Shown in pieces: positions 36,568 through 55,351 of a DNA stretch of 64,000 nt (position 1 is the first letter of the stretch; each line of letters opens with the position of its first letter). This DNA is from Candidatus Kaiserbacteria bacterium (GTDB lineage Bacteria > Patescibacteriota > Minisyncoccia > Phycocordibacterales > UBA918): positions 283,386 to 347,385 of the forward strand of contig CP064968.1 in assembly GCA_016699245.1 (NCBI GenBank). The letters are read 5' to 3'. Both the position numbers and the translations under genes were made by a program. The notes beneath the pieces were generated by a model that was given only the letters and a program-made list of their open reading frames with translations, had not been told where the DNA came from and made no database searches.

Positions 36568-37863
36568 TTATTCAACAGCAGCACTCGTAGTTACTGTTTC
36601 TTCTATCGTCACCTCGTAGTCTTGGTTTTGCTTGGTGGCATGGCTAATATAGAGCGTAATCGCAACAAAAATAGTAATAAGTGCAACTATCGAAATAAAG
36701 AACCACTTATAACTAAGCATAAAACGCCATATAGTAGTAATGACATCAAGTGACTCCTCTGCAGTAGTAAGTCGTGTACGCAGATCGAGGACGCCATCAC
36801 GAATTGGAGCTGCAACTGCATGATACGTATGAAGTGTTCGTGGAGTTTTATTTGAGAGACTTTCTTTCTTCGCTTCTTCGCGTTCTTTCTTGTCGACATC
36901 CACACCTGCAAGCATGAGCATGCGTCGCACATACGCCTTTACCATGAGCGTAATGAGTGTGATAAAAATGCCAAGAATAGTAAGTACGATAAGTGTCCAC
37001 TTAATAGGTATCACCCAAAAGTATGCCACGGCTGTCACATTTTTGATTTCATTTTCACCGTAGCCAAGAGTCGCTATAGCTTTATACCGTCCAATATCAG
37101 TCATTTTAAACTCACTTTTCCATGAGAAATTAAAATCACGAATAGTGCCGGGGAGTACATTGCCGTAGTGTGTCTGGTAATTCACAGGAATAGTACCTCG
37201 TTCAGTACCCCACATGTTGGTAATCTGAATATCTCCTTTTGGTTGAAGATGAACGTTGCCCTTGTTTTCAAAGCGAAGTGAAAACGTGGCGTCAGGCACA
37301 TCAAGAAACGCATCGAGAGCACGAAACTCACGGATAGTTGCAGCCTCATGCATATCTCCTTCTACCCGCATAAAAAGAAGTGACGTCACCACTTGTGAGG
37401 TGAGCACCGCAAGTTCATTGGTGTTTTTAGGTGGCTCCGTAGAAATTTGAATCGCAGCGTAGTGTCCGCCCGGTGAAGCATTCTCGGGCACCTCAACAAA
37501 AAATGACACGTCGGCAGTTTGTTCCGGGGGAATAACGTATGGACCTGAAGGGAGTGTAATCCACTCAGCAAGTGTAGCATTATCCCCACCAGCTTCACCA
37601 AGAGGTATGAATCTCCCCTGTCCTGCTTCACCCACGGCTTTAAAATTGAATAACTCAGCATACACCGTAAGCGGATAGGGATTTCCATTTACTACTTTCA
37701 CACTACTTTGCCAAATATCACCTGGGTTTATCGAAAGTTGAAAGAGCGGCGGTGTCACACTCATCACCTGTTTTTCTTGCGCATACGAAAACGATACACA
37801 GAGACAAAACAGAACAAGTGACAGGAAGACATACACACTATTTTTGTGAATTCGAGTCATCAT
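36568..37863 (-). CDS. Signal peptide, beta-rich ectodomain and C-terminal transmembrane anchor surface protein. Paralog family A. The architecture resembles CscA/DUF916-type anchors.
   Basis: Signal peptide ending at SYAQE with a VTPPLF motif. Transmembrane helix WTLIVLTILGIFITLITLMV, then a charged tail and a second C-terminal transmembrane helix. Confidence 0.5.
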   Translation of the reverse strand: MMTRIHKNSVYVFLSLVLFCLCVSFSYAQEKQVMSVTPPLFQLSINPGDIWQSSVKVVNGNPYPLTVYAELFNFKAVGEAGQGRFIPLGEAGGDNATLAEWITLPSGPYVIPPEQTADVSFFVEVPENASPGGHYAAIQISTEPPKNTNELAVLTSQVVTSLLFMRVEGDMHEAATIREFRALDAFLDVPDATFSLRFENKGNVHLQPKGDIQITNMWGTERGTIPVNYQTHYGNVLPGTIRDFNFSWKSEFKMTDIGRYKAIATLGYGENEIKNVTAVAYFWVIPIKWTLIVLTILGIFITLITLMVKAYVRRMLMLAGVDVDKKEREEAKKESLSNKTPRTLHTYHAVAAPIRDGVLDLRTRLTTAEESLDVITTIWRFMLSYKWFFISIVALITIFVAITLYISHATKQNQDYEVTIEETVTTSAAVE

Positions 37864-38921
37864 GGTGTTTTAGACGGATGTGTGAGATCGACATCATGAT
37901 GCTTTGGTTCACTTTGTGAGTCACGCACATGGACCGTAAGTCGCTCACTGTGGTCATCTAAATCGTCTTCACCAAAATATTTTTTGTGGACATACCAGGC
38001 AAGTACGGCTACAAGCAGGATACATCCAGCCAAAAATATCAAAAGTAGTTTAAGTGGGAAGACATAGAAAAAGGAAGTATCCTGAATCGATGCACGCTGT
38101 GTAGTTCCATATTCTACAGAGAGAAATGCCTTATACTTTCCGAATAATCCTTTCGTAGGCACTGCTCCCGTAAACGTATACTCACCCCCCGGACTAATGC
38201 TTACATTTTCATTATTTACAGGCATGGTACCCACTTCTTTTCCAGTGCTATCATAGAGAATGATTTCACCCTGTGGGACTAATACTTCATCTCCTGGGTT
38301 CGTAAAAGTAAACACAGCGGCTTGGTTGTCAACCTTGGTCACAAAGCGACTCACAATAAATTTTGAGAGTTTTAGAAACTCATTTGTATCATCAGCAATC
38401 GTGAGCGTCACAACAATGCCCGGTGCTTGGCCATTCACTACCTGTTTTTCAGCTTCATCGCGATTACCACCGTTACCAAAACCGATGAACGCATGATACG
38501 TACCGGGAACAGGATTGGGCGTTACACGAACGGTGAGTTTCACTGTCTTCGCTGCGCCAGATTGTAAATCAATACCGAGACGACTGATTTCAAGCCACGA
38601 AGCAAGCGAAGTAGTACGGTCGCTTTCTACGGGCGCAAGAAACTTATCAATCGTACCTCCCTCCTGTAGTGAGATATTGTTGACTGATGGATATATAGTG
38701 ACGGGTGCTGTACCTGTGTTGGTGATAGTAATTTCTTTTTCGACAATATCACGCGCCTCTGACTTGAGGTCGATGACCATAGGACTCACCGTGTACGATG
38801 TAGTTGCGTGTGCGTTTGCACCTCCGCACAAAAAGAGCATGGGTAATAAAAGTCGGAATATGAGTGCTTTAAAAGATTGGAACTGAAACATAGCGAATTC
38901 TTGATTCATATACTCCTGCAT
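37860..38921 (-). CDS. Same architecture as the protein at 36568..37863. Paralog family A.
   Basis: The start probably lies at a Met downstream of the giant-gene stop (38909 or 38891). Has a YTVSPMV motif, a C-terminal transmembrane helix LLLIFLAGCILLVAVLAWYV and an acidic/His tail. 4-nt overlap with the downstream gene. Confidence 0.5.
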   Translation of the reverse strand: MQEYMNQEFAMFQFQSFKALIFRLLLPMLFLCGGANAHATTSYTVSPMVIDLKSEARDIVEKEITITNTGTAPVTIYPSVNNISLQEGGTIDKFLAPVESDRTTSLASWLEISRLGIDLQSGAAKTVKLTVRVTPNPVPGTYHAFIGFGNGGNRDEAEKQVVNGQAPGIVVTLTIADDTNEFLKLSKFIVSRFVTKVDNQAAVFTFTNPGDEVLVPQGEIILYDSTGKEVGTMPVNNENVSISPGGEYTFTGAVPTKGLFGKYKAFLSVEYGTTQRASIQDTSFFYVFPLKLLLIFLAGCILLVAVLAWYVHKKYFGEDDLDDHSERLTVHVRDSQSEPKHHDVDLTHPSKTP

Positions 38922-41900
38922 CTTGTAATCCTCGAATCAAAATGCGGTATATCACATCGGTGGTCTCACCCGCGACTGGCTGTGAACTATATGATACCTC
39001 ATCAAGCGTTGAAGTGCTCACGCGAGCGAATGTATCAGGTGCCAAAAAGCGTGCTGTAGAAACTCCGTCTAGCGTATCATCACTTGTGTGATATCCAAAA
39101 CAGCTTGCAGCACTCACACTACAACCTGTAGTCCACGCTGCAGGTACTGCATTGGTGCTCGTAAGCGGCTTCATAGTAGCGCCCATTCCACTCGTGAGTT
39201 CGCTATCCATAACCATGAATATCTGATACCCCTCAGTGCCATTCGTATCAATAGTGAGTCTGTGTGCACCTTCTTTGATACCATCAGGAACAAGTTTACC
39301 AAATGGTAGTGTCGTGGGAGTGGTATTGATATCAAGTGTTATTCCTCCTTCTACAACGGTAGATGAAGCAATACCTTCCATGGTGAAGTCGAGACTGGCA
39401 CCCTCGGTCACGAGTGAGGGGTATGATTCACCTATATTTGTGGTCACCGGAATACCCTGCACTAAGTCAAAAAGCCTGAAGTAGTAGACGCGATTAACGC
39501 GTGGACCTGCTGACTTAAGTGTAAATTCGTATTCTGCAGCAGTATTACGGTTGTGGCGGAACCCAGTAAGTGGCAATGGCGAGAGGTTGTGAGTACCACA
39601 ACCATCTCCCACACTACTCACACACGAATCTGCATCAGAAAGTGTCTTGGTAGTGATCTTCACGTTATCTGCCCCATTACTGTCGTCATAGCACCATGTA
39701 GAGGAAGCGGTACAGGTCGATGATGCAGTGAGATCGAATGCAGTACTGAAATTAGGGGATTCAGAGTACTGCAGTTTAAAACGCACGTCGTCACGTGAGA
39801 TATTCTCTGTTTCCTTTACGGTCACACGAAGTTTCGTCGTGCTCCCGTTTACAAAGTCGATAGGTGCGGTATTTTCACTTGCAAGCGCGCTTACGGGAGT
39901 TTCGTTCAGAACATCATCATACCAACGCCAATTTTGTGTCTTTGGGGTAAAACTTGCAGTGCGAATTTGTGGGTAATTTGCATAGTTACCCATCAATGTC
40001 CCATTAGATTCCACGAGTCTGAAGCAATAGAATGTTTCAGCACTTGCACCATTTTGTTCAATAAGCCAATCATACTCGATATCATCACCCTCAGGGACTG
40101 CATACGCATTCACAGCACTATCATTCATCTCTTCAAAGGTACCCGCAACATCTGAAACACTCAGTACCGTTGTTGTTGGACTCCCCACGAGTTGTGTACC
40201 GTCCGCTAGATTGGTTGCATCAGCACCACGCCATATAGTACTTGAACTCATGTCGCCGAGTGTATTCCAATTGGTTTCATCTATTGCACTACATGTGGTA
40301 AGCATTTGTCCATATTGAAGTTTCCACGATTTAGTCTCAGCAGGAAATGTTGCATTTATGGCACGCACGGACATACGTATGCGAATTGTTTCAGCTTCTC
40401 CGAGAGGCTCATCTAATCCAGTAAGTGCTTCATTTTCGCCAAGCGCACTATCCCCTATAGGCCACGCATCGAGCGGCAGTAGCGCATTGTTGTCAACATA
40501 CAATCGATAATAATTTTGACGATAGGTAAGTCCGGCTGTTGGCCACTCGACTATAATCGTACGATACGCGAGTTGTGCACCCGTGTCAGAGCGCCACAAT
40601 TCATAGTGTGTCGATGAGGCGATGGTTGCTCCTGCTATCGGTCGAGGAAAGGATCCGTCTGTTCCCGCGACACGTGAATTTACAAAAATAGATGCATTAG
40701 TGATGTCAGTGAGTGTCTTACCTATAGGAACACTGAGGGTAAATGGTTCTGCACCGTTTAACGAATCCCCATTTGAGTAGGTCACATCCATGGCTCCCGC
40801 AGACGTCTGCATATTTTCGATAATCCATGCCACAGAGGTCTGATTTCCTGGTGTTGTCGCTCCTGTTTGCAGGAAGTATGAGACGTAGCCAATGCTTGAA
40901 AGCCACACTTCATGGCCAAATTCGTCAATTCCTGCAAGACCGCCCCCCACACGCTTCTGTGCGTGAAGCATAGTACGTGCGAGACTGTTAACTGCTGTAA
41001 TTGATTCTGTTTCTGTTGTACCCGCAGCACTATATGTATGCTCACTTCGTTGTATTGCCCAATTTAAACCAGTAAATTCTACAACTGCGTAACTCAACAC
41101 CACAGCATCACTACCCGCTTCACCACGAGTAAATGCTGCTTGATCACTTGCTGAAAGCCACTCAGATGTAGATTGCATAGTATTGTAATCAGCAGTTCCC
41201 GTATCTGGACTACCAACTCCGGTAATAAACACGACGACATCAGTATCATTACCAATATCGCTGATGACTGATGTGGTTGCTGTGAGGCTCGTTGTGGTAT
41301 ATGCAATAGTACCCTGACTTCGTACAATCATTTCATTATCTGCCCCTATAGAACCGATATATTCAACTATTTCCCACGACACTCTCGTGGTTGTCGCCGC
41401 TGCAGTTGCGGGACGCTGGATGGTAAACGATGTTGTAATATTTGATGGATCTAAAATATATGCTGTTACATCGTCTGCATTTTGATTACCACCCGCGGAA
41501 CTATCCCCAGCACCGGTATGGTGTGAATTCGTGATACGGACGAACGCACTTGTTGATGCAGATGGTGCAATGTAGTCAACACCGGCTACCAGAGTGATTG
41601 CATTTGTAGAAAAATTAACTGTTCCTCTTTGAATTTCAAAATCTCGTTCAGGAGAAGTAGTGAGTTCAGGATATATAGGATATGCATTGAGTGGTGTTCC
41701 TCCATTTGAGACACGGAAGCAATAGGTAATATCGTATCCCGCATCAACCGTGGGCTTCATAGAGAACTCAGCCTCAATAAATTGAATTGGGGAAAGAGTC
41801 GTTGTTGCAACTGTTGAGAGTAATTCCTTAACGGCGCTATTTGGGCTCACAAAATTTGTATTTTCATCAGTGACTGCACCTTCCGCAGATCCAAAAATAT

Positions 41901-44900
41901 TCGTGGTATCGCTTTCATCAGTAAGATTTGACGTGGTTGCCATATTCCATGCACCACCCAAAGCACCCACATCAGTCCAAGAGCCAACGTCACTGCATGT
42001 TGTAATCTTTGTTCCGTATTCTACGCGTAGCGCTGTGTCACCAGAAGTAACCGCGCCTTCATTTGAAACCTGTAGTCGAAGACGAACAGGTGACGTGAGT
42101 GCAATGTTTGCCGCAGGAGAATCCTCATTTCCTCCCGTGAACGATGTTGCGGTGGTCTCATCTCCATTGTCGTTTCTCCAGTGGTAGTGTGTCTGTGTGA
42201 GTACTGCTCCGAGCAGTGTCGTCTCACCACTCAGGTCACGAGTGATGGTTGGACTTACTGAGCCAACTGAGACGGTAAGATTCATAGATGGATTCTCCAT
42301 CACAATATTGATTGTCTCACCATTTTGCGCCGACGAGGTCACATCAAGCACTGGATACAGACAGAGCGTCGAGGTCGTACTTACGGTGACAGACCCTGTG
42401 AAGGTGGATGTTCCATTGAGAGATGAAAAACCATCGGTGTCAGTGGAGCCAAACTGGTCGTCGCCCACAGTATAGGATTCTCCAGCACAATCGTATGGTG
42501 CAGTAACATCAAGATCATACCTGAGTTCAATGTTATCGAGACCTGTCTCAGCATTCACGGTTCCATTTTCTGTAATAGTAATACTCGTAACGTCACGAGA
42601 GTCGACATTCTCTGTAATCACAAAACCTGTCCCAATATATTGGGTTGTCGTGGGAATAGTGAAATTGACCATCTGCGATGAGGTGGCAACGGTTACAAGT
42701 ATGTCAGCGGAAATGTTGGCTCGAGGATATACGCGATATTCAGAGAGTGGACTTCCCTGATCACTGACCCTAAAGCAGTATGTGTTCCCTTCAATAGCAG
42801 TTGTTGACGCAACAATGGAATATTCGAATTCAACAAACTCTGTAGTGGTGAGGACAATTGGACCTGTCTCCGACGATGTGGTTTTGACTGCGTAGTTCGG
42901 TGAGTGGAAAAGCGCATTTTCATCACTCACGGCTCCGTTTCCCTCTACAGTTATGTTTGTGGTACTATCCCCGTCATTTAAATTCCCTGATACTGACATA
43001 TCAAAGTCTCCACCAATAGCCCCCACATCTACCCAGCCTGTAGCAGCGTCACAGGTACTCGGGTTTGGAGCGTACTCAAGCCGGTACTGTATAGCAGGTG
43101 TCGAACTACTTCCTTCATTTGATACCTCAACACGCAGACGTGTTGTGGACCCCTGTCGCATTGTGGTGAGTGATGTGTCTTCGACACCGGCCGTTTTTGA
43201 TGTTGCATTTACCTCATCACCATCATCATTTCTCCAGTGATAATGCATAAGTGTCGGAGCGTCATTGTAAATTGTCGTCGTTCCAGGAATATCTTGAGAA
43301 GATACGGGGCCAGCCGTACCTCCCGTAACAAAAATATCAGATCCTGGGTTTTCAATAGATATTTCGATAGTAGAATCTCCATCAGCAGTATCCAGCACAT
43401 CAAAAACTACGTACACACAGAGGGTCCCCGTATCACTCACGGAGACAGTACTACCCGTAAAAGAAGACACTCCATCGGCGCCTGAGAAGCCATTCACATC
43501 TGTTGAACCAAAGCGACTCTCGGAACCATCATATGATTCGCTTGTACAGGTGTAGGGAGACGAGGTGTCCATTTCATAATACAATTTCACATTCGCAATA
43601 TCAGTTGATGCATCGACACTTCCGCTTTCCGTAAGGGTAATCCCTGTCACATTATACGAGTTTAAAACATCCGTATTGTATATAACAAACGTACCTCCAA
43701 TGTACACATTACTTGTACTTGCATTGACTGTTGCAACCTGATTATCAAGCGTCGGAATCGTAGGACTCGGGAGATCAATGAGTGTCGCCCCGTATACATC
43801 ATCAGTGACATCACCAAACCAAGTTGCATAAATCCTATCGCTACTTACTTGATTAAGGTCCATACCGTAGATACTCGTAGGGCTCGTGTTTACTGGGCCT
43901 TGTATAAATCCCCAACTCGCCATATCATCCGTTGACTTTCTCCAGAGTACACTCGCTGTATTAGCACTGTTTGCTATACCCTGCGCACTGTACGCAACAT
44001 ACACGTCATCATTGCTCGCATCGAGTGCGATGGCGACGTTCGTAAGTCCTGATACTGTCGATGCGACTACGTCAGTAGTAGCCGTCCAAACACCGCCCGA
44101 GTATTTGGCAGTGCGAATTTGGTCGTCACTGCCGGGTGTGGCATTTCGCGCAATGTATGCAAGATACACATCCCCTGTCGTTGGACTCACGGTAACTGCC
44201 ATACCTATGTCGTACGTTGTGTTATCAGGAGCATCAGAATCAATCGTCGTCGACGCAGCGTCCCACGTATTGGTGCCACTATCATATACTTTACTTTCGA
44301 TATTTTCTGCAGATGCGCCTATGTCACGATGTATCGCTATGATGTCGCCACCAGAGAGTGGTGCAAGTATTGCATAGTTGTTTGTACGTCCAAACGGATC
44401 TGTTCCTGCCTCATCCCAGCTTGCAGCGAGATTACAATTTGCAGTGCACATGAGGACAACAGAATCTGAAGCATCAATACTACTCGCGTACAGCGTTCCG
44501 TCTGTGGCTTTTGTTATTGAAATGGAGTTTGATCCAGCAGTAAGTGTCCCCCCTTGTGCAGGTGGACCTATGAATACACTCACGGGAGATGTACCCATAA
44601 GAAGAGTGTCCCCAGCAGTATCGAGACGGTTATACCAGACATCATCTGGATTCTCATCGAATGTTGCAATATGAATGTAGGTACCCGTGTCCCCTGGCGT
44701 CCACTGGTCGTACCATACCGTTACCATGGCACAATCAGTCTGTGCATCCACAGTGGTCGTTGCACTCCATGTCGTTCCGCCATCGGTAGTTTTTCTGTAC
44801 ACACAGTAGCCAGGAGCGTCGCGGAAGAATTTATACCCTGTCTGATCGTCGGTAAAAACAGTTTGTGATCCTGAAATATGGTGTGACGTCCCTGTTATAA

Positions 44901-46266
44901 ATGCGTCACTGTCGATAGTGTCCATAGTATACGCATCAGTATCATTTACTCCATCAGGACTCACCGTCGTAACCTGTATCCCTGGATGAATGTCTGCAAT
45001 GGTGTCCCCCATAATATCGTCTCCTGTGTTTTGAAACCATGATGCATAGATTCGCTCACGATTGCTTATATTTAGGTCCACCCCATAAATGTCGTTGGGG
45101 GCATCATTCATGGGACCCTCTTCATACGTCCATGTACTCATACCATCAGCGGATTTTTTCCAGTACACATTTGCACTTGCTAAGGTTGTGGGGACAGTAA
45201 GAGCACTGTATGCAACATATACATCATCATTGCTCACATCGAGCGCAATTGCGACGTTTGTGACGCCATACTCACTGTATCGCACAACCTCTTTCTTTAG
45301 AGTCCATACACCCCCCGAGTACACTGCGGTACGAATCTGATCGTCGTTGCCTAATGCAGCGTTCTGAGCAACGTACGCAAGATATATATCTCCTGTTGTT
45401 GGACTTACCGTGAAAGCCATCCCCGCATCATAGGTTGTGTTATCGGGGGCGTTCGTATCAAATGTTGTCGTAGCCGCGTCCCAGGTTCCGCCCGTATTGT
45501 TCCATACTTTACTTCCCATATCCTCAGCTGCTGCGGCAATATCTCGATGAATCGCGAGAATATCACCACCAGGAAGTGGCGCTAGAATTGCATAATTTGC
45601 CGTAAGGCCAAAGGGATTCGTACCAGTCTCAATCCAACTTCCAGCGATGTTACAATTTGCAGAACACTCAACCACATACGAATCGGAGCCATCAATGTTA
45701 CTTACATAAATTGTCCCATCTGTTCCCTTCGTTATTGAGGCAAGGTTTGATCCTTCAGTAATAGTACCTCCTTGCCCAATTGTCGTACTTACCGGCGCGG
45801 AACCCATCAACAAACTATCACTGGATGTATCAAGGTTGTTATACCAGACGTCGTCCGGGTTTGTGTCAAGTGTCGCAATATGAATTATCGTACCAGTGTC
45901 TCCGGGAGTCCATCGGTCATACCATACGGATATCTGGATACAGTCAGCCTGCCCATCCACAGTAGTCGTCGCACTCCATGTCGTTCCACCGTCGGTTGTC
46001 TTTCTGTACACACAGTAGCCAGGGGCATCGCGGAAGAACTTATACCCTGTCTGATCGTCGGTAAAGACAGTCTGCGAACCTGATATAAGATGTGCGGTAC
46101 CGTTAATGTGTGCATCGGGATCAATGGTTGCTTCGGCAGCCTCTGCAATGTGTGTGGGATGAAAAATAAGTCCATCACCAAAACTCCCGACAAGAATTAC
46201 GGCAAGCAAATACAGGGAAATAGCGACTCTAATACCCCGGAGTTTTTTAAAAATTCCTCCATGCAT
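38869..46266 (-). CDS. Giant secreted surface protein, 2465 aa. Two tandem Asp-box (BNR) motif-containing domains of about 405 aa each, three WR(N/W)DDG-type repeats, and a conserved C-terminal domain shared with ORF 53744..54880.
   Basis: Signal peptide with a cleavage-site-like HIAEAAEA. The Asp-box TDGGTTWS occurs twice. Repeats read YHWRNDDGDE...RLRVEVSNEG. The C-terminus is TTLPFGKL...RIRYVSVPIF. Confidence 0.7.
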   Translation of the reverse strand: MHGGIFKKLRGIRVAISLYLLAVILVGSFGDGLIFHPTHIAEAAEATIDPDAHINGTAHLISGSQTVFTDDQTGYKFFRDAPGYCVYRKTTDGGTTWSATTTVDGQADCIQISVWYDRWTPGDTGTIIHIATLDTNPDDVWYNNLDTSSDSLLMGSAPVSTTIGQGGTITEGSNLASITKGTDGTIYVSNIDGSDSYVVECSANCNIAGSWIETGTNPFGLTANYAILAPLPGGDILAIHRDIAAAAEDMGSKVWNNTGGTWDAATTTFDTNAPDNTTYDAGMAFTVSPTTGDIYLAYVAQNAALGNDDQIRTAVYSGGVWTLKKEVVRYSEYGVTNVAIALDVSNDDVYVAYSALTVPTTLASANVYWKKSADGMSTWTYEEGPMNDAPNDIYGVDLNISNRERIYASWFQNTGDDIMGDTIADIHPGIQVTTVSPDGVNDTDAYTMDTIDSDAFITGTSHHISGSQTVFTDDQTGYKFFRDAPGYCVYRKTTDGGTTWSATTTVDAQTDCAMVTVWYDQWTPGDTGTYIHIATFDENPDDVWYNRLDTAGDTLLMGTSPVSVFIGPPAQGGTLTAGSNSISITKATDGTLYASSIDASDSVVLMCTANCNLAASWDEAGTDPFGRTNNYAILAPLSGGDIIAIHRDIGASAENIESKVYDSGTNTWDAASTTIDSDAPDNTTYDIGMAVTVSPTTGDVYLAYIARNATPGSDDQIRTAKYSGGVWTATTDVVASTVSGLTNVAIALDASNDDVYVAYSAQGIANSANTASVLWRKSTDDMASWGFIQGPVNTSPTSIYGMDLNQVSSDRIYATWFGDVTDDVYGATLIDLPSPTIPTLDNQVATVNASTSNVYIGGTFVIYNTDVLNSYNVTGITLTESGSVDASTDIANVKLYYEMDTSSPYTCTSESYDGSESRFGSTDVNGFSGADGVSSFTGSTVSVSDTGTLCVYVVFDVLDTADGDSTIEISIENPGSDIFVTGGTAGPVSSQDIPGTTTIYNDAPTLMHYHWRNDDGDEVNATSKTAGVEDTSLTTMRQGSTTRLRVEVSNEGSSSTPAIQYRLEYAPNPSTCDAATGWVDVGAIGGDFDMSVSGNLNDGDSTTNITVEGNGAVSDENALFHSPNYAVKTTSSETGPIVLTTTEFVEFEYSIVASTTAIEGNTYCFRVSDQGSPLSEYRVYPRANISADILVTVATSSQMVNFTIPTTTQYIGTGFVITENVDSRDVTSITITENGTVNAETGLDNIELRYDLDVTAPYDCAGESYTVGDDQFGSTDTDGFSSLNGTSTFTGSVTVSTTSTLCLYPVLDVTSSAQNGETINIVMENPSMNLTVSVGSVSPTITRDLSGETTLLGAVLTQTHYHWRNDNGDETTATSFTGGNEDSPAANIALTSPVRLRLQVSNEGAVTSGDTALRVEYGTKITTCSDVGSWTDVGALGGAWNMATTSNLTDESDTTNIFGSAEGAVTDENTNFVSPNSAVKELLSTVATTTLSPIQFIEAEFSMKPTVDAGYDITYCFRVSNGGTPLNAYPIYPELTTSPERDFEIQRGTVNFSTNAITLVAGVDYIAPSASTSAFVRITNSHHTGAGDSSAGGNQNADDVTAYILDPSNITTSFTIQRPATAAATTTRVSWEIVEYIGSIGADNEMIVRSQGTIAYTTTSLTATTSVISDIGNDTDVVVFITGVGSPDTGTADYNTMQSTSEWLSASDQAAFTRGEAGSDAVVLSYAVVEFTGLNWAIQRSEHTYSAAGTTETESITAVNSLARTMLHAQKRVGGGLAGIDEFGHEVWLSSIGYVSYFLQTGATTPGNQTSVAWIIENMQTSAGAMDVTYSNGDSLNGAEPFTLSVPIGKTLTDITNASIFVNSRVAGTDGSFPRPIAGATIASSTHYELWRSDTGAQLAYRTIIVEWPTAGLTYRQNYYRLYVDNNALLPLDAWPIGDSALGENEALTGLDEPLGEAETIRIRMSVRAINATFPAETKSWKLQYGQMLTTCSAIDETNWNTLGDMSSSTIWRGADATNLADGTQLVGSPTTTVLSVSDVAGTFEEMNDSAVNAYAVPEGDDIEYDWLIEQNGASAETFYCFRLVESNGTLMGNYANYPQIRTASFTPKTQNWRWYDDVLNETPVSALASENTAPIDFVNGSTTKLRVTVKETENISRDDVRFKLQYSESPNFSTAFDLTASSTCTASSTWCYDDSNGADNVKITTKTLSDADSCVSSVGDGCGTHNLSPLPLTGFRHNRNTAAEYEFTLKSAGPRVNRVYYFRLFDLVQGIPVTTNIGESYPSLVTEGASLDFTMEGIASSTVVEGGITLDINTTPTTLPFGKLVPDGIKEGAHRLTIDTNGTEGYQIFMVMDSELTSGMGATMKPLTSTNAVPAAWTTGCSVSAASCFGYHTSDDTLDGVSTARFLAPDTFARVSTSTLDEVSYSSQPVAGETTDVIYRILIRGLQDAGVYESRIRYVSVPIF
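43665..46095 (-). repeat. Intragenic tandem duplication, two units of about 1215 bp, with stretches of 100% identity. Encodes the duplicated Asp-box (BNR) domains.
   Basis: Antisense ORF pairs in the provided six-frame ORF track are offset by about 1215 nt (44554 vs 45772; 43886 vs 45089). The 44-aa stretch SGSQTVFTDDQTGYKFFRDAPGYCVYRKTTDGGTTWSATTTVD is identical in both copies. Confidence 0.8.
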
Positions 46267-46485
46267 TTCCTCTCTATTATCGCGTACTTACGAGTGTAAA
46301 ACAATTGCTCACCTGTGTGAAAACACCTTATAATATCAACACAAATAGCCACACCTCTCTCCTTTCACTTGAGAAATGTGCCACATCGTACGTTCTACAT
46401 TTTCCACGTATGACATTCTCTGCATGCTATATGTGCAACGTACTATATTGCACATTTCGGAGTGGAGTTGGAGTTTAGGTGTGCC

Positions 46486-48276
46486 CTAGATTTTAATTTC
46501 CTCGTTCAGAACATCCTCCAATGGTACATATGGCTCAACTACTAAGTCCTCAATTGATATTACTTCGTCTGTTGTAGTACCCTCACTGAAAGAAGGAATG
46601 ACTACATCACTCACTTCTACTGCCACTTCAGGTGTGCTTGAACTACTTTCATCCTCAGTAAAGACTGGTATCACTAAATCACCCTCATCGAGACCATCAT
46701 CAGTCGTAGTGCCTACGTCATCATTCTCGTCGGAGTCGGTCTTTGGCTTAGGCTGCGTAACAGGAGCAACAAGTGCGCGCTCCTCACCAGTTTGCTCGGG
46801 ATTAGGAATCTCTTCGGGAACAGGTGTAGGTCTTGATGCAAGATTGAGTACCTCACCACTCTTGAGGTCGTATCCACGAGTTTCTATATCTCCCGTGTCC
46901 ATTTTTGCATCATATACTAATACAAAGCGTGGATTTTCAATCGATCCACCGTCGGCGTCTTCGATGGTATGAGTGGCACCAGAGCGCATATCGTATACCT
47001 GCATACGCCATGCATCTTCTTCGAATGACTGCCACACGACATGGGTACCATTCACACTCGGAGCAATATCATGAGTGGTATTGTCAGTGAGCATTGTACG
47101 TTCTCCGTCTGTCTCAAGGAAAATCTCCCAGTCATTCCCTACCCACCCTTGCCATACTACCGCATCACCAAAGACACTTGGCTGCATGTTGTTATACCTA
47201 TCATCGGTGAGTTGTGTCTCTTCTCCAGTTTCAAAATCAAATTGAATGATTTGATATCGGCCATCTATAAGCCTGTGCCATACAGCAGTATTAGAGACTT
47301 CATCAAAGTATGGCGCCTCATCATCCAACTGATTATCAGTAAGTGTTACTAACTCTGCATTTTTTTCGGCATATATCTCTTTGTCACCCTCGGCGTCAAC
47401 TGCAGAAAAAATTCTGTCGTTGTTCTGAACACGAGGAGCATCTTTCGAAGTTGCACAGTAAAAACTACCATCACCAACCGTAGTACACTCATCTTTTGAA
47501 AATGAAAACTTGTTTTCATCATTTGTGACTACATGCACTATTGGCTCTTCCATAGTTGTGCTAGATGTAGTTTCTAGGGTAGCAGAGACTTCTTCTCCTA
47601 TATTTTCTGGGTCAGGTGTAACATCCTCAAGAGGAAGTACTTCCTCAGGCAAAGTGACCTTAGGGATTACTTCTTCTTGTGGGGTTTCAATTTCAACTAC
47701 TTCCTCAGTAGTACTTCCACGTTCAGACAAGACTTCATCAACAGTCACTTCGATAGGGGTTTTTGGCAACGATTCTGCTTTTTCTTCAGTGGCTGCCTCG
47801 GACAATTGTTTTGTTGTGTCCTCTATTACTTCTTCATATAGTGAATTAATTGTTTCCTCGAGTAGTGGTTCAGATGATGATTCTGTAACTTCCTCTATTA
47901 CGAATACAGGAGTTGCTTCTGGTTCTTCAAGTATAGACCCATTAGTGACATTTTCTGTCCCTTCAGTGACAATACTTGCTTCAATTGGTGTCAATGGAAC
48001 CTCTTCTGTGTCTGACACCTCAAGAGCATCATCTGCAATATCAACTACATCAGTGATACCGACTTCTTCTTGTTCTACTTCTGTATCTTGATCTCGTAAA
48101 ACTAATTCTCCATTATCCATAACAACCTCATCTGCAAATACAGGGGCGAGAGGCAGGAATACAAGTACAACGAGTAGCACAAGAGAAAAAGCACTGTATA
48201 CCAGATACTCTAAACCCCGCATTTCTTTATGCGCTCCTATCATTATATACCGTTGTTTCATTGCTCTACGTTCCAT
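46486..48276 (-). CDS. Membrane-anchored acidic protein with an E/T/V-rich low-complexity stalk and a C-terminal beta-propeller-like domain.
   Basis: N-terminal transmembrane helix LVYSAFSLVLLVVLVFLPL. Repeated ...VVWQ... blades (AVWHRLIDGRYQ, DAVVWQGWVGNDWEIFL, THVVWQSFEEDAWRMQVY). Confidence 0.5.
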   Translation of the reverse strand: MERRAMKQRYIMIGAHKEMRGLEYLVYSAFSLVLLVVLVFLPLAPVFADEVVMDNGELVLRDQDTEVEQEEVGITDVVDIADDALEVSDTEEVPLTPIEASIVTEGTENVTNGSILEEPEATPVFVIEEVTESSSEPLLEETINSLYEEVIEDTTKQLSEAATEEKAESLPKTPIEVTVDEVLSERGSTTEEVVEIETPQEEVIPKVTLPEEVLPLEDVTPDPENIGEEVSATLETTSSTTMEEPIVHVVTNDENKFSFSKDECTTVGDGSFYCATSKDAPRVQNNDRIFSAVDAEGDKEIYAEKNAELVTLTDNQLDDEAPYFDEVSNTAVWHRLIDGRYQIIQFDFETGEETQLTDDRYNNMQPSVFGDAVVWQGWVGNDWEIFLETDGERTMLTDNTTHDIAPSVNGTHVVWQSFEEDAWRMQVYDMRSGATHTIEDADGGSIENPRFVLVYDAKMDTGDIETRGYDLKSGEVLNLASRPTPVPEEIPNPEQTGEERALVAPVTQPKPKTDSDENDDVGTTTDDGLDEGDLVIPVFTEDESSSSTPEVAVEVSDVVIPSFSEGTTTDEVISIEDLVVEPYVPLEDVLNEEIKI

Positions 48277-48397: not shown

Positions 48398-49138
48398 TTA
48401 GCGTGTGAATGAGTCGGCAAGAATAATTGAAAAATCTCTAAATGTCATGCGTCCATCGCCATCAAAATCGTATGTTTTCGCCTTAGTAAACCACGCAGCC
48501 ATGAAGGTACTAATATCCTTCAAGTCCACCTTCCCGTCACCATCCATGTCAGTAATGATAGAAATAGTTGCTTCAGCAGAAAGAACCCCATCCTCACCCA
48601 ACACCGCAATCTTAACTTCATTCTTTCCGTCATTTTCGGTTACGGGGATAGGCGTACCCTTACCATCCCCCGCCACCAACGCAGACTCACTAACAAAAAT
48701 ACGTGCACTCCCTGATTCAATTGCACGCAGTTTCACACGAGCAATGGAGTGTTCTCCAATGAAGCCTTTACGAAAAGTACCCCCACGAAGATATATTTTT
48801 CCGTCTTTGAAATAGGGTGTTTCTGTCCACAGTGTAATCACTGAGGTTCCTGTATCAATCCCCACCACCTCGATTTTATCTTCGGGGTACGAGAGCACAA
48901 GATCAACTGCATTAATTGCAACATGTACTGTAGCTGAGACTGTTACAAAAAATTCTTGATCACGAGTAACCGATGTCTCACTAGTTGCAATGGTGATATA
49001 TGAACTATTTTCTGATATAACTGAAGCAAGACTTGCAAAAAGCGCTGCAATCACTACTGCAGGGAAAGCATATTTGATGGTAGTAAACTGCTTTCCTGTA
49101 TACTTTGGGAAAAAAAGTTGCCAGAGTTTTTCAAACAT
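48398..49138 (-). CDS. Cohesin-like domain protein with a C-terminal dockerin-type (EF-hand-like) repeat pair.
   Basis: N-terminal transmembrane/signal segment. The cohesin-like beta-sandwich is FFVTVSATVHVAINAVDLVLSYPEDKIEVVGIDTG..ITLW. The dockerin is DMDGDGKVDLKDISTFMAAWF...YDFDGDGRMTFRDFSIILA. Confidence 0.6.
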   Translation of the reverse strand: MFEKLWQLFFPKYTGKQFTTIKYAFPAVVIAALFASLASVISENSSYITIATSETSVTRDQEFFVTVSATVHVAINAVDLVLSYPEDKIEVVGIDTGTSVITLWTETPYFKDGKIYLRGGTFRKGFIGEHSIARVKLRAIESGSARIFVSESALVAGDGKGTPIPVTENDGKNEVKIAVLGEDGVLSAEATISIITDMDGDGKVDLKDISTFMAAWFTKAKTYDFDGDGRMTFRDFSIILADSFTR

Positions 49139-49141
49139 ATA

Positions 49142-49801
49142 TTAGGGTGCCACTCGTGAACGAATCTCGTCAATACGTTTATTGTATACAACCAGAAGTT
49201 CGCCAATTTCTTGCGCATCGCGTGCAAGGGTTGTTACCTTCACACTTTGTACCGATTCTCCGGAAATGAGTGCTGTAACAATTTCACTCTGAAGACGCTC
49301 TTGATCACGAAGTGCTGTACTGCGTGATTTCTCAAGTGATACGATTTCTTCCCACTCCTTTTTGTAATACGATTCTATGTCACGTTCACTGAGTGTTGCA
49401 AGGAGTGTGAGTAATTTTGTGTATTGAGTAAATTCGCGCTCAAGTTTTGAGACCATGAGCGCTTTCCTTTCCGAGTAAAATCTACCGCAACTCTCTCTGA
49501 GAGTCTGTACCGCAATCAAATCACGTTTGGTGAGTGTTGCAAGTGAATTGAGAAGTTCTTCATACTCGCTTCTACGCGGACAATCACTAATAATAATTTC
49601 AGTAATATCATCGGCCCCATTTTGATCAGTAATTTCAGCAAGAGTTCGCATGTACTCTAGCTCCTCTGTAAGCATGGTATGCACCTCAGCCTCCATTGCA
49701 CGCTGATTATGATGCACAAACCATGCACCACCAACAAACACAAGTGCGATTCCCAAAAGAATAAATGAAATCAAAATGTGTATATGTATATTTTTTTTCA
49801 T
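49142..49801 (-). CDS. Hypothetical membrane-anchored coiled-coil protein, 219 aa.
   Basis: N-terminal transmembrane helix ILISFILLGIALVFVGGAWFV followed by a charged helical region. Confidence 0.45.
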   Translation of the reverse strand: MKKNIHIHILISFILLGIALVFVGGAWFVHHNQRAMEAEVHTMLTEELEYMRTLAEITDQNGADDITEIIISDCPRRSEYEELLNSLATLTKRDLIAVQTLRESCGRFYSERKALMVSKLEREFTQYTKLLTLLATLSERDIESYYKKEWEEIVSLEKSRSTALRDQERLQSEIVTALISGESVQSVKVTTLARDAQEIGELLVVYNKRIDEIRSRVAP

Positions 49802-49807
49802 AAATAA

Positions 49808-51553
49808 CTATTTCAGTACGTTTTCAATATCTTCAATTTCTTTACCAATCTTACTTTGTGCATTCTTTAGGTCATTCTCAATACGCTCAATGAGCGTTGC
49901 TTCTGCTTTCGTTAGTTTACCCTTTCGTGATTCTTTGAGCTCTGCAATACTCACATCTAAGTTTTGTATAATACTCGTAAATTCAAGCGAGAGACGTTCT
50001 TCTGCCTCAATGGTTTCCTTACGCACTTTTCGTTTCCTGAGTGCAAGACGATGCCAAAGATACCACGAGCCAAAGATAAGTACGATGAGAAGTGCAACAA
50101 TAGGCACAAGTACCGAGAGAATATTAATCACGATAGTTCCTGCAGCGACATAGCCTGGAATTTCAACAATAATTTTAATCGCATCAGATTTTTCACTGAC
50201 ACTTCCAAATGCATCACGGGCAACTGCGGTAATGGAATATACACCTGTTTCGAATTTGTTGTCCGGGATAAAACTAAACTCACCATCTGCATTACTCTGT
50301 ATTACATACGGATTTTTGTCAGAGTCACCTTCTGCTACGCTTACGATGGTATTGTCACTTGTACGTATCACTTCAATAGCAACTGTTGCATTCGGACGTG
50401 TCTTTCCTTTAATAACAGGAATGACTTCAGTATTTATGCGCGAGGGAAACTCGACAAAAGTAGGTTTTTCAAATGCATCAATAGTAAATGAATGACTCGC
50501 AATAGCAGTATTTCCTGCACTATCGAATGCTTCTACTGAAATAGTGTGGTACCCCGGCATAAGGGACTCGAGTGTATACTTTTTTAATCCCTCGGCGTCC
50601 TTGAAGATGATTGGCTCTTTGCCATCTATCTGAATTTTATATTCACGTAAAGGCGATACATCCTCAAAGGCAAAAAGAAGAGTTTTATTTGGATTATCCG
50701 CACGTGGTGTCTCTTCAGAAATTGTAAAGTTCTTTGGTGTTTCAGTATCTACACGCAATATATATTCAGCAATGCGTCCCCATCCGTCAGCATTTTTGAA
50801 TTGCAAATGAAAATATGAAACCCCCTCAGGAAGGTCTTCAAGTTTTTTTGAGGTAAGGGGTTCATCGTAAACCTTTGTAGGTATGGTACCCGACGTATTA
50901 TCAAGGAGCATGCGTACTGCAGTCACGCCAGCAGGCAAAGTCCAACTGAGTGCCGCATTCTTTTCCTTGTACCATACTGATGAATCAGGATGTGTACTTG
51001 AAACAATTTTTGGTGCTGAGGGTGTGTTTGCGGGCGGGATGTATTCTGGTGCTGGTGACTCACCTTTTGCTGCAATAGTAAATGTTCCTCCGTTCATCGA
51101 GGTGAGTACGTTGGTGCCCATGCCATCTGCAGCAAGCACGGAGCCACTTTTAAAAGTCACTTTGGGAGTGCCTGCGGCGAGTGGCTTAAAGGTAATAGAA
51201 ATAATAGTACCTGCAGCACCTTTGTAGCCCGTTGGTGAACCTCCGCCAAAAGAGATTGTTCCAGCGGTATTTGAGAATGTCGGCTCTTCAGTCCAGAGAT
51301 TAAAAATCGAACCACCACGAGTGACATTCGTCACCGTGAGTTCACGCGGATTAAAAGAAAGTTGCCCATCCGCTGCATTGACTGACTTTCCTTCAGTATT
51401 AAGCACGACCGAAACAGTAAAGATTGTACCTGCTGTATATACGCCTGTGTTTGGGCTTACTTTAAGTATTGCAGCCTCAACATGTTGAGTACCACCAATG
51501 TAACATCCAAGAAGAAGAGTTAATCCGAGTATGTACTTTTTAAATAAATTCAT
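49808..51553 (-). CDS. Cohesin-like domain surface protein with Ig-like domains, a C-terminal transmembrane helix and a cytoplasmic coiled-coil tail.
   Basis: Signal peptide. The cohesin-like N-domain is ILKVSPNTGVYTAGTIFTVSVVLNTEGKSVNAADGQLSFNP...GSIFNLWTEEP...ISFGGGSPTGYKG. Transmembrane helix IVINILSVLVPIVALLIVLIF. Confidence 0.6.
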   Translation of the reverse strand: MNLFKKYILGLTLLLGCYIGGTQHVEAAILKVSPNTGVYTAGTIFTVSVVLNTEGKSVNAADGQLSFNPRELTVTNVTRGGSIFNLWTEEPTFSNTAGTISFGGGSPTGYKGAAGTIISITFKPLAAGTPKVTFKSGSVLAADGMGTNVLTSMNGGTFTIAAKGESPAPEYIPPANTPSAPKIVSSTHPDSSVWYKEKNAALSWTLPAGVTAVRMLLDNTSGTIPTKVYDEPLTSKKLEDLPEGVSYFHLQFKNADGWGRIAEYILRVDTETPKNFTISEETPRADNPNKTLLFAFEDVSPLREYKIQIDGKEPIIFKDAEGLKKYTLESLMPGYHTISVEAFDSAGNTAIASHSFTIDAFEKPTFVEFPSRINTEVIPVIKGKTRPNATVAIEVIRTSDNTIVSVAEGDSDKNPYVIQSNADGEFSFIPDNKFETGVYSITAVARDAFGSVSEKSDAIKIIVEIPGYVAAGTIVINILSVLVPIVALLIVLIFGSWYLWHRLALRKRKVRKETIEAEERLSLEFTSIIQNLDVSIAELKESRKGKLTKAEATLIERIENDLKNAQSKIGKEIEDIENVLK

Positions 51554-52626
51554 GATTGTGTTTCTTCTTCGATTGTTTCTTCGTTCAGTAATCGTTGTTT
51601 ACGTCTCCAGAGTGCATAAAATACAAGCGCGGTTATAAGTATAATAGTCCCCGTTACGATTATAGTGGTAATGAGCATGTCACGAGACATACTACGAAGT
51701 GCAGTATCAGGAACCAGAGTTACAACACGAATGTTACCTGCCTTATCAATAGCTTTTACACGAATCGTGCTATTCAGGGTTTGATCCTTGAGTACATAGG
51801 GACTTTCAGTTTCAATCCACGGCGCGTCTGCACGTCCCCATCTGAATGCACTGAACTCTGCAAATGGTTCTTCCATTACTTCATAGTGATCAATACCAGA
51901 TTGTTTGTCGTTTGAATTAAAGACTATGAAGTATTCATTATTAAATGCAACATCGTCTTTGGTAAGAGTAATGGTAAAGTCTGAAGGAATTTCGTTGTCA
52001 CTGCGCACATCATCCTTCCACGTGTCTTGGATTTGGGTACCTGCGGTATCTGCTAGATTAATACGTGCTTCTTGGAGTTTGAGTGGTGCTGGAGTACCGC
52101 TCCCATCATGTAAGAGCACTTGTGAACTTTCATCGAGCCAAATACGAGGCGATTTATTATCGCTTCCGCTACCAATCGTGAAGCCTGGTGATTGAAAAAC
52201 GATTTCAAGTACCATATTGGTAAGACTTGGATCACCCGCGATACGTCCACAATAGCCACCAGGCAATCCTCCAGCAAAACGAATGGTGTGGTTTATCTCA
52301 TCAATTTTTGGAGATTCAACCCAGAGGTTCAAAATAGAATCACCGCGAGAAATATCGACAGCGTTGAGTGCTGCATCATAATGAATAGTAGCATCGACAG
52401 TATTAACACACTCTCCTTCATCAGTATCAAGGCGAAGTCCTACCGTGACACTATTTCCCCGAAAAATATCAGCGCTTCCAGGATCAAAGTACAATGTTGC
52501 AGCGTGCGCATGTGTGGCAATCACCCCAAAAAATAATACAGCAAAAAAAGCAATACGCACTCGTATATCCATCATATAACTAAAAGTATACCAAATCGTA
52601 ACCTTAAAAGGAGGGGGACTGTACAC
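51550..52626 (-). CDS. Cohesin-like domain surface protein with a C-terminal transmembrane anchor. Paralog of the gene at 49808..51553.
   Basis: ATLYFDPGSADIFRGNSVTVGLRLDTDEGECVNTVDATIHYDAALNAVDISRGDSILNLWVESP...RFAGGLPGGYCG. Transmembrane helix LITTIIVTGTIILITALVFYALW. 4-nt overlap with the downstream gene. Confidence 0.6.
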   Translation of the reverse strand: MYSPPPFKVTIWYTFSYMMDIRVRIAFFAVLFFGVIATHAHAATLYFDPGSADIFRGNSVTVGLRLDTDEGECVNTVDATIHYDAALNAVDISRGDSILNLWVESPKIDEINHTIRFAGGLPGGYCGRIAGDPSLTNMVLEIVFQSPGFTIGSGSDNKSPRIWLDESSQVLLHDGSGTPAPLKLQEARINLADTAGTQIQDTWKDDVRSDNEIPSDFTITLTKDDVAFNNEYFIVFNSNDKQSGIDHYEVMEEPFAEFSAFRWGRADAPWIETESPYVLKDQTLNSTIRVKAIDKAGNIRVVTLVPDTALRSMSRDMLITTIIVTGTIILITALVFYALWRRKQRLLNEETIEEETQS

Positions 52627-53743: not shown

Positions 53744-54880
53744 TTAGAACGTCGGAGTTGCTACATAGCGCAGTGTCGTAGTGTAGTCGTCACCTGCTTC
53801 TTGCAAAGCCGAAATTTGAATCTGATAGCCGACACGTGCAGCACCGGAGTTTATTGTTGTTCCATCAGAGGGACCATTATGGCCCATGATAGCAATCGGT
53901 GTTGTACTTCCAGAAACCCACTCATTCGAGCCGAACTGTACAGATCGGGCAAGAATTGCTGTGTCATTTGAGGTTAATCCCCAATGACCATAGGAATTTG
54001 GATTTGCAATCAGACCTCCTGGACCCTGCCATGCCGAAGGCGTAACAGTGTTTGTCCCATCGATGAAGCCATCGATAGTCGCACCAGTTGTAGATTGCAA
54101 GCTGCCTGCTTGTTGAACTGTTACGGTGTAGCCTACTGAGGCGTTCGTCGAAACAGAGAGATCATGCGCAAGTGTACGTGATACTCCGATTGGCAAATTG
54201 CCAAAAGGAAGTGTTGTTGGGGTTGAGGTTGCAATAGTGGTCGTGGGACTACCGTTTACTGTTGAACTGGAATTTACTCCAGTGACCGTAAAGGTGAGTG
54301 ACGTATCCACATTTGCCGAAACCGTAACCTGGTCAACAATTGCAACACGCATCTCTCCTGAATCTTGCATCGTACCCGCAATTGTAATTGGGTATGATGT
54401 CGTAGCAGATGGATTTACAATTTTTATAGCACCGCCAGTAGCATTTGAACCAATCTTAATTATCATATCTGATGATGAAGCGGTTCCGCCGTCTGTTGGT
54501 GTCTCGAATGTAATCGCATCTGTACCAATACCAGTCACTCCCCATGTACCTGCCCCACTCGCACCCGCAAGCGTTTGATCAACCGTATTAACACTGAGGT
54601 CAATATCGCCGATTAAAACTCCTGAAGTGTCGAATTGTGAAGCAAAAGTAACAGTAAAGTTTGAGCTTGTTGCCATACCATTTGGTAGTTCAAAAGCTAT
54701 TGTGTGGTTTGATGTTACAGAAGGTGCTGAGTTGCTCAGCGTATCACTTGCGTTGGTGATTGATGCCGCCTCCGCAAAGCGGAAGAATGTTGGAAGACCA
54801 GTACTCCAAAGGAATAAGGCAAGTCCAACCGTCATCGCAACAGCCTGAAGAGTTCGCACGGTTCTTGCCGTGTGAGTCAT
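53744..54880 (-). CDS. Secreted protein, 378 aa. Its N-terminal leader and C-terminal domain of about 150 aa are homologous to the termini of the 2465-aa giant protein.
   Basis: N-terminus ...FFRFAEAAS (giant: HIAEAAEA). C-terminus SLTFTVTGVNSSSTVNG..TTLPFGNL...VGYTV...HWGL...TLRYVATPTF, against the giant's SLDFTMEGIASSTVVEG..TTLPFGKL...EGYQI...AAWTT...RIRYVSVPIF. Confidence 0.6.
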   Translation of the reverse strand: MTHTARTVRTLQAVAMTVGLALFLWSTGLPTFFRFAEAASITNASDTLSNSAPSVTSNHTIAFELPNGMATSSNFTVTFASQFDTSGVLIGDIDLSVNTVDQTLAGASGAGTWGVTGIGTDAITFETPTDGGTASSSDMIIKIGSNATGGAIKIVNPSATTSYPITIAGTMQDSGEMRVAIVDQVTVSANVDTSLTFTVTGVNSSSTVNGSPTTTIATSTPTTLPFGNLPIGVSRTLAHDLSVSTNASVGYTVTVQQAGSLQSTTGATIDGFIDGTNTVTPSAWQGPGGLIANPNSYGHWGLTSNDTAILARSVQFGSNEWVSGSTTPIAIMGHNGPSDGTTINSGAARVGYQIQISALQEAGDDYTTTLRYVATPTF

Positions 54881-55350: not shown

Positions 55351-55351
55351 T

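Follow-up and report, generated by a model that had tools for sequence, protein, structure and literature searches.

The window analysed here is a 64,000-nucleotide stretch of Candidatus Kaiserbacteria bacterium DNA (assembly GCA_016699245.1, contig CP064968.1, positions 283,386 to 347,385), which carries on its minus strand, at 38869..46266, a single unbroken open reading frame (ORF) encoding a giant protein of 2465 amino acids (aa). This protein belongs to a known kind, the modular surface proteins with a carbohydrate-recognition-type head, and is itself uncharacterised; we suggest that it is probably a surface adhesin of the Paceibacteria/Minisyncoccia with a variable and exchangeable glycan-recognition head. 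From the N- to the C-terminus it would consist of a signal peptide, a head of two beta-propellers, an immunoglobulin (Ig)-like stalk broken by a middle domain of ~410 aa, and a C-terminal domain of ~175 aa. The propellers would recognise, and possibly cleave, glycans on the envelope of a partner or host, and if they do recognise glycans the head would be a specificity determinant, one that may diversify by divergence, by the gain and loss of propellers and by cassette exchange. The C-terminal domain may dock the protein non-covalently to the envelope by way of two WxLIP-like membrane proteins encoded downstream. In window coordinates, the giant protein is laid out as follows:

46129..46266, minus strand: N-terminal signal peptide or anchor, aa 1-46 (read from the translation)
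44920..46128, minus strand: propeller unit A1, aa 47-449 (self-BLAST, AlphaFold2 (AF2) model, Foldseek and Asp-boxes)
43708..44919, minus strand: propeller unit A2, aa 450-853, a paralogue of A1 (self-BLAST, alignment and Pfam BNR_2)
42676..43707, minus strand: stalk module B1, aa 854-1197, two Ig-like beta-sandwiches (AF2 model, Foldseek and motifs)
41644..42675, minus strand: stalk module B2, aa 1198-1541, a paralogue of B1 (self-BLAST)
40402..41643, minus strand: middle domain, aa 1542-1955, fold unassigned (no Pfam or PDB sequence match)
39583..40401, minus strand: two degenerate HW-type beta-sandwich domains, aa 1956-2228 (self-BLAST and motifs)
38872..39582, minus strand: C-terminal region, aa 2229-2465, including the ~175-aa domain (identity to the C-terminus of a 378-aa ORF)

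The internal repeats were resolved by chunked self-BLAST, as self-BLAST of the whole protein returns the identity match only. An earlier reading of this DNA, made from the sequence alone (hereafter the sequence-only reading), had proposed the ORF and two consecutive repeat units; both are real, the units being ~403 aa in length with boundaries ~40 nucleotides away from those first given, and the DNA spacing of the A1/A2 repeat, in register, is 1209-1218 nucleotides. The first 46 aa comprise a basic n-region (KKLRGIR), a hydrophobic core and the sequence AEAAEA, which abuts propeller A1. The junction AEAAQ-TID is kept in the family consensus, and the signal peptide cleavage site is inferred from the translation. 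A search of NCBIfam yielded no family for the giant protein, while PDB sequence searches with the protein alone and with a whole-family profile yielded no match. Furthermore, no RTX, LPXTG, autotransporter or type I secretion system (T1SS) signals were seen in it.

The repeat unit is an Asp-box (BNR) beta-propeller, as had been proposed. It matches the Pfam BNR_2 model above threshold (37 bits; cut-off: 31.4; best stretch: aa 655-787, in A2), while the short Pfam BNR repeat model gives a sub-threshold match. A canonical Asp-box, TTDGGTTW, is found at aa 90 in A1 and at aa 493 in A2, accompanied by the relaxed forms SADGMSTW at aa 372 (A1) and STDDMASW at aa 778 (A2), and the Asp-box residues T44, G48 and W51 (unit numbering) are invariant across the family. 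The AF2 model of A1, for which 75 aligned sequences served as input, is all-beta, with a predicted local distance difference test score (pLDDT) of 92.3 and a predicted template modelling score (pTM) of 0.91. Its DSSP string contains seven tight B-C hairpins (28-34/39-44, 81-89/92-100, 140-145/150-155, 190-196/204-210, 248-254/263-271, 288-297/302-310 and 359-366/371-379), which indicate seven blades. As such, the modelled unit is apparently seven-bladed, unlike the six-bladed GH33 sialidase type.

Comparison of the A1 model with the PDB in Foldseek gave 631 propeller matches at E <= 1e-3. The lowest E-values belong to GH145 hydrolases (5mum, 5mvh and 5mul/5muk) and to a 'putative neuraminidase' (4irt). 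For the GH145/PL25-type structures E ranges from 5e-13 to 7e-12, with template modelling (TM) scores of just 0.39-0.57 and 12-14% identity. The best superpositions were obtained on the seven-bladed Photorhabdus lectins PHL/PLL (TM 0.58-0.72), sialidases superpose with TM 0.46-0.50, and further matches include PL24, PL25 (ulvan lyase) and PL42 lyases and a pseudaminidase. Among the viral structures of BFVD only generic propellers were found, for example phage G gp424-427, and tail fibre or spike proteins. The label 'sialidase-like' given by the sequence-only reading holds for the Asp-box propeller and is not supported as regards a six-bladed fold, given the seven hairpins and the best superposition on seven-bladed structures. 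Glycan binding or cleavage, which was also proposed, is a reasonable reading in view of the BNR_2 match, the AF2 fold and the matches to GH145, neuraminidase, sialidase and lectin structures, and a hydrolytic or lytic role would be possible since the best E-values belong to enzymes. Three arginines per unit are conserved, of which R195 and R359 (R241 and R405 of the protein) are invariant and R266 is present in >90% of the sequences; unit residues H83 (H129 of the protein) and N97 and several aspartates, D71 and D104 among them, are likewise conserved in the family, and such arginine, histidine and aspartate residues could bind a sugar carboxylate. Inspection of the translation revealed no RIP (FRIP) motif in either unit.

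The two propellers are the product of an old tandem duplication and are far too diverged for ready recombination or for confusion by an assembler. In a global alignment of the units 265/395 aa are identical (67%), as are 66% of the nucleotides over aligned codons. A DNA repeat finder recovers A1/A2 pieces that are 70-86% identical, and Tandem Repeats Finder reported nothing over window positions 38000-47000. The proposal that the units are near-identical, with long stretches of 100% identity, is thus not confirmed. The sole long identical protein run spans 44 aa (aa 61-104; next longest run: 8-11 aa), and the DNA of these 44 codons is only 89% identical, with a synonymous divergence (dS) of 0.69. 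Over the whole units the Nei-Gojobori estimates of non-synonymous divergence (dN) and dS are 0.25 and 3.76, respectively, such that synonymous sites are saturated, and third codon positions are 43% identical against a composition-based chance expectation of 27%. The saturated dS, together with a longest exact nucleotide match of 26 nucleotides, argues that the similarity is held by purifying selection and not by recent copying. In keeping with this, A1 and A2 retain 98-99% of the residues (A2: 99%) at the 44 positions that are conserved to at least 95% in single-propeller relatives, including the cysteine pairs C85/C109 and C201/C205 with their unit-2 equivalents, H129, R241 and R405. Neither propeller copy is decaying, and both are under strong purifying selection.

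Homologous recombination requires stretches of exact homology, and we infer from this that A1 and A2 offer nearly no substrate for homologous unequal crossover. Neither a very recent duplication nor ongoing gene conversion, both put forward previously, is supported by the dS values or by the mostly positional grouping of the units across genomes, and the recombinational expansion and contraction expected from them finds no footing in a longest common exact word of 26 nucleotides. The same short word, along with a two-unit layout in 22 independent assemblies, speaks against the assembly hazard of which the sequence-only reading had warned.

The history of the units can be followed further among the homologues. 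Within the clade of the window protein, the nearest match of a unit 1 is in most cases the first unit of another protein, and that of a unit 2 a second unit, which places the duplication before the lineages of the clade. The pattern is not tidy throughout: in the window protein and the homologues P0001-P0003, the sequences nearest to the first ~2/3 of unit 2 are of unit-1 type, and only the last ~130 columns are of unit-2 type. P0001 shows 82-95% identity between its own two units over this tract, the dS of which is still 1.3-3.0. This looks like an ancient, partial conversion within the gene, after which purifying selection acted for a long time. A further clade (P0073 and P0078-P0082; 45-46% identical to the window protein) likewise has two propellers, and here the units of each protein cluster with each other (79% bootstrap), which suggests an independent duplication or concerted evolution. 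That the single-propeller orthologues derive from an unequal crossover of unit 1 with unit 2 was considered and is unlikely, as their last blade carries the ending of unit-1 type (GDTIADIxPG) and not that of unit 2 (GATLxDLPS).

A collection of 5.8 billion proteins contains 266 homologues of the giant protein, all unnamed and all from metagenome-assembled genomes (MAGs) of Patescibacteria, for which the source names given are Minisyncoccia or Patescibacteria group; the best of them is 67% identical. Literature searches retrieved no description of the family, nor of WxL-like systems in Patescibacteria. Propeller number was compared in 121 proteins, comprising the best 120 of the 266 homologues and the window protein. 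A single propeller is found in 96 of them (~2060 aa) and a pair in 23 (~2460 aa), the other two being truncated. The gene order around the one-propeller gene of locus L001, the two-propeller genes of L002, L003 and L004 and the window gene is alike, which identifies these as orthologous loci differing in propeller number. The comparison of unit number across related genomes, which the sequence-only reading had recommended, thus gives one versus two at a syntenic locus, and one to four in the wider family. Scanning GTDB with the C-terminal half of the protein identified homologues in MAGs of Kaiser-, Nomura-, Azam-, Harrison-, Yanofsky-, Adler-, Jorgensen- and Sungbacteria. With unit A1 as the query, HMMER retrieved 885 representative clusters in a full scan, 222 of them at E <= 1e-30, in which the A1-type propeller occupies varying positions in proteins of 300-2800 aa. 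Among the top 148 of the 885 clusters, one copy per protein is found in 116, two in 23, three in three and four in three. Two of the representative-library matches of A1, P0246 and P0177, contain tandem units with protein identities of 100% and 96%, indicating that recent duplication or conversion of the module occurs elsewhere, not here.

Different parts of the giant gene have different relatives. When a tree is built from the last 1600 aa, two-propeller proteins lie dispersed among the one-propeller ones, and the window protein groups with the one-propeller proteins P0015, P0018, P0019, P0021 and P0022 (75.5% bootstrap). The flanking genes compared (encoding UvrB, TGT, FKBP, an AI-2E transporter, a redoxin and the downstream membrane proteins) share 79-95% identity with their counterparts in the genomes of P0019, which has one unit, and P0007, which has two, as against 42-84% with those in the P0001 genome. 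Within the giant protein itself, aa 100-1400 share 66-81% identity with P0001 and 46-64% with P0019, while from aa ~1500 to the end the values are 65-83% for P0019 and 49-73% for P0001. The sliding identity profile switches at about aa 1450-1500, near the start of the middle domain. Bootstrapped neighbour-joining (NJ) trees of the propellers place the window protein only with two-propeller proteins (100% of replicates), as do those of the first 400 backbone columns (78%), while for backbone columns 800-1200 it joins the same five one-propeller proteins (82%). Judged by these trees and profiles, the window gene is a recombinant mosaic, in which aa ~100-1400 would share ancestry with a distant genome, and the C-terminal ~1000 aa and the flanks with close relatives. 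The head is the most variable part of the giant protein, and even in genomes with 80-95% identical flanks the propellers are merely 55-65% identical. The simplest reading is that a cassette of head and proximal stalk has been exchanged between lineages, atop fast divergence of the head. The variability of the head fits a role in partner specificity.

The region behind the head is built largely from repeated beta-sandwiches. Module B1 (aa ~843-1188) recurs as B2 (aa ~1198-1540) with 44% amino acid identity in the chunked self-BLAST, dN being 0.56 and dS saturated. The AF2 model of B1 consists of two Ig-like beta-sandwiches (pLDDT 93.7), for which Foldseek returned weak generic matches (Ig domains of PrgB, integrin legs and transglutaminase barrels; E ~5e-4), and its second sandwich carries the motifs HWRNDDG, RLRVEVS and YCFRV in that order. 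The second half of the B modules recurs at aa ~1961-2104 and ~2108-2224 (26-30% identity by self-BLAST). Three further repeats with an HW-type signature had been announced behind the propellers; the signature is borne out, while the count is not, as there are four beta-sandwich domains, two of them canonical (HWRNDDG at aa 1010 and HWRNDNG at aa 1362) and two degenerate (RIRMSVR at aa 1962 and QNWRWYDD at aa 2111). Each of the four closes with a Y(C/Y)FR(V/L) motif, and the degenerate pair (aa 1956-2228) furthermore shows KLRVTVK, YCFRL and YYFRL. The stalk domains matched no Pfam family. For the middle domain no match was found in Pfam, at relaxed thresholds, or among PDB sequences. Taken alone, the middle domain (aa 1542-1915) has homologues of 32-43% identity outside the Patescibacteria, namely in Verrucomicrobia, Lentisphaerae/Victivallales, Gemmatimonadota, a Nitrosopumilus contig and a Thorarchaeota MAG (loci L066, L067, L072-L074, L076, L078 and L079).

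With the C-terminal domain of a 378-aa ORF encoded further upstream, the last ~175 aa of the giant protein share 34% identity (E 2e-13). The giant protein ends in RIRYVSVPIF, and the two proteins have the ending RYV-x-x-P-x-F in common. In comparisons with close relatives, this is the best-conserved part of the giant protein (80-83% identity). Pfam, searched at relaxed thresholds, yielded no match for it. The domain common to the two proteins may be a docking module for the gene cluster, in which the following neighbours of the giant gene are found:

37860..38921, minus strand: downstream, 353-aa WxLIP-like membrane protein (Pfam WxLIP_PGBD E 0.12, below threshold)
36568..37863, minus strand: downstream, 431-aa WxLIP-like membrane protein (WxLIP_PGBD E 0.021, profile positions 19-120 of 121)
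53744..54880, minus strand: 378-aa secreted protein with the C-terminal domain of the giant protein (self-comparison; kept in syntenic loci)
46486-48276, minus strand: directly upstream, 596-aa ORF with a highly acidic, low-complexity N-terminal half (no Pfam match at relaxed thresholds)
48398-49138, minus strand: upstream cluster, 246-aa protein with an EF-hand/dockerin-like C-terminus
49808-51553, minus strand: Big_13 protein, with Cohesin matches in orthologues (Pfam)
51550-52626, minus strand: weak Cohesin match (Pfam)
55352-56479, minus strand: Big_6 and Dockerin_1 protein (Pfam)

The 353-aa and 431-aa proteins each have a signal peptide, a beta-rich ectodomain and a C-terminal transmembrane segment, and are paralogues of one another (hhalign probability: 99.2%; E 8.7e-20). 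In both, the sub-threshold WxLIP_PGBD match spans nearly the whole profile. The 353-aa gene is syntenic in 5/5 loci examined. The family of the 431-aa protein has more than 1200 homologues in Patescibacteria, and WxLIP_PGBD (DUF916) is matched by 46/66 of the family members (best E 3.2e-6). In the WxL/Csc clusters of Firmicutes, secreted proteins with a common C-terminal wall-binding domain are encoded beside DUF916 membrane proteins, and the layout of the locus is suggestively reminiscent of these clusters. The C-terminal motifs may be WxL-like, with GY replacing GW and an end of the form Y-x-x-x-I-R-Y-V-x-V-P. As the Pfam WxL model finds no match, docking is put forward here as a hypothesis. 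The 378-aa ORF matched no Pfam family at relaxed thresholds, WxL included.

As annotated, the giant ORF at its 3′ end and the 353-aa ORF at its start have 53 nucleotides in common (38869-38921), and an identical overlap is called in locus L004 (17319 versus 17371), suggesting translational coupling, or a true start located farther downstream (Met5 or Met11). Few genes of the locus vary as much as the 596-aa ORF, which has 42-76% identity to orthologues of 541-578 aa. Further upstream, the region 48398-57409 of the minus strand is a conserved cluster of secreted proteins with cellulosome-type modules, among them a possible cohesin-dockerin pairing in a surface locus of Patescibacteria.

Several readings other than an adhesin have been considered for the giant protein and its tandem propellers. 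The units could have been duplicated recently, or be undergoing conversion, and expand and contract as a contingency or antigenic-variation locus. The 44-aa run identical between the units favours this, the unit-1-like first two-thirds of unit 2 and the similarity of that tract in P0001 suggest a past partial conversion, and P0246 and P0177 of the wider family do contain tandem units of such similarity. It is nevertheless very improbable for the window gene, with dS at ~3.8 overall, 0.69 within the identical run and still 1.3-3.0 in the 90%-identical tract of P0001, with units 66% identical in nucleotides and blank in Tandem Repeats Finder, and with just one or two units in the top 120 homologues. 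No evidence was found for a false expansion of a single unit during assembly, a reading with next to no probability, since a third of the nucleotides differ between the units, exact words do not exceed 26 nucleotides, the reading frame is intact and the same two-unit architecture is found in 22 assemblies of different sources. A structural role is conceivable as well, either as an envelope or S-layer-like component or as part of a cohesin-dockerin scaffold that degrades polymers, in which the propeller pair would form a GH74-like clamshell. The conserved upstream cluster of secreted cohesin-like, Big_13, Big_6 and Dockerin_1 proteins is in its favour, as are the retention of the family across many Paceibacteria lineages and the presence of GH74 enzymes, which have a tandem seven-bladed Asp-box pair, among the fold matches (6p2l and 5fkr). 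These matches are weak, however (TM 0.27-0.40), a single propeller in most orthologues (96/121) means that a clamshell cannot be the general mechanism, and a hypervariable, recombining head over a conserved base is a pattern to be expected of recognition and not of a lattice; we regard this role as improbable.

The propellers could also be tethered enzymes of the GH145, PL24, PL25, PL42, sialidase or pseudaminidase type, which would break down uronic- or nonulosonic-acid polysaccharides in the envelope of a host, or else serve to scavenge sugars. The lowest Foldseek E-values (GH145: 5mum, 5mvh and 5mul; 4irt; PL25 ulvan lyase; PL42; pseudaminidase), the BNR_2 score above cut-off and the conserved R195, R359, R266, H83 and Asp residues, in which sugar-carboxylate binding may be read, all lend themselves to such a role. 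It is harder to reconcile with the low identity to these enzymes (12-15%) and TM scores of 0.39-0.57, compared with 0.58-0.72 for non-catalytic lectins, with the missing FRIP motif and catalytic residues that could not be mapped, and with a giant stalked architecture typical of adhesins. Tethered enzymes are thus possible, though we doubt that this is what the propellers are. The adhesin interpretation, which we favour, has weaknesses of its own. The best Foldseek E-values are those of enzymes (GH145) rather than lectins, the TM scores to all solved structures are modest (0.4-0.7; identity 11-15%), and the blade count was derived from the DSSP string and the TM ranking instead of from coordinates. 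As regards anchoring, the WxLIP_PGBD matches are mostly under the Pfam gathering threshold, Pfam WxL was not hit by 25 C-terminal domains at E <= 5, and a profile of the C-terminal domain gave only chance-level matches against PDB sequences. The proteins from which the mosaic was called, by NJ trees and identity profiles, are diverged (45-85% identity), and lineages evolving at unequal rates could produce part of its signal. Finally, we know of no host for the lineage.

Tandem duplication of a domain in a large surface protein is ordinary by itself, and its context may be what matters. A life attached to other microbes is assumed for the Patescibacteria, and to our knowledge little has been established about how they recognise their partners beyond type IV pili. 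A specificity determinant would be expected to look like this family, with a conserved base bearing a hypervariable, mosaic head of glycan-recognition type and one or two propellers. Both the variation between one and two propellers at orthologous loci and the mosaic head fit a determinant of partner specificity in an episymbiotic lineage. Hardly any surface protein of Patescibacteria has been characterised by experiment, and the family offers concrete candidates with which host recognition can be tested. A broader proposal, which we consider speculative and rather unlikely, is that a conserved envelope apparatus of the Paceibacteria/Minisyncoccia, composed of WxLIP-like, cohesin/dockerin-type and small and giant docking-domain proteins, displays a giant stalked protein with a horizontally exchangeable head of one or two propellers, which would determine the partner-cell glycan that the episymbiont recognises. 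If true, this would constitute a cellular analogue of the swapping of receptor-binding proteins in phages.

The window propeller resembles GH145 (BT3686 and relatives), PL24, PL25 and PL42 enzymes, sialidases and pseudaminidase in being a propeller with Asp-box turns (Foldseek E 5e-13 to 1e-9). These proteins are extracellular and carbohydrate-directed, as is proposed for the window propeller, which furthermore appears, in its model, to be seven-bladed like GH145 and PL25 and unlike the six-bladed GH33 sialidases. It differs from this group in its sequence (12-15% identity) and superposition (TM 0.39-0.57), as well as in forming the tip of a 2465-aa stalked protein, twice in tandem. The Photorhabdus lectins PHL and PLL2/4/5 and the fungal lectins AFL/FleA and AOL superpose over ~390 columns (TMq 0.57-0.61; TMt <=0.72), and being non-catalytic, multivalent sugar binders they would suit an adhesin head. 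They share only 11-14% identity with the window unit, however, and are small, soluble proteins with sequence-repetitive blades and one site between blades, whereas the blades of the window unit are not sequence repeats and Asp-boxes are present. The locus may resemble the WxL/Csc clusters of low-GC Gram-positive bacteria in two adjoining membrane proteins of WxLIP-like layout, with consistent but weak WxLIP_PGBD matches, and in a C-terminal domain common to a pair of secreted proteins, while differing in that this domain is without a Pfam WxL match, no LPXTG partner was identified and the phylum is another. Although it belongs to a Patescibacteria lineage without characterised adhesins of that type, the giant protein is like the giant modular adhesins of bacteria in its signal peptide, its run of Ig-like domains, a variable and mosaic end of ligand-binding type and a proposed attachment domain at the opposite end.

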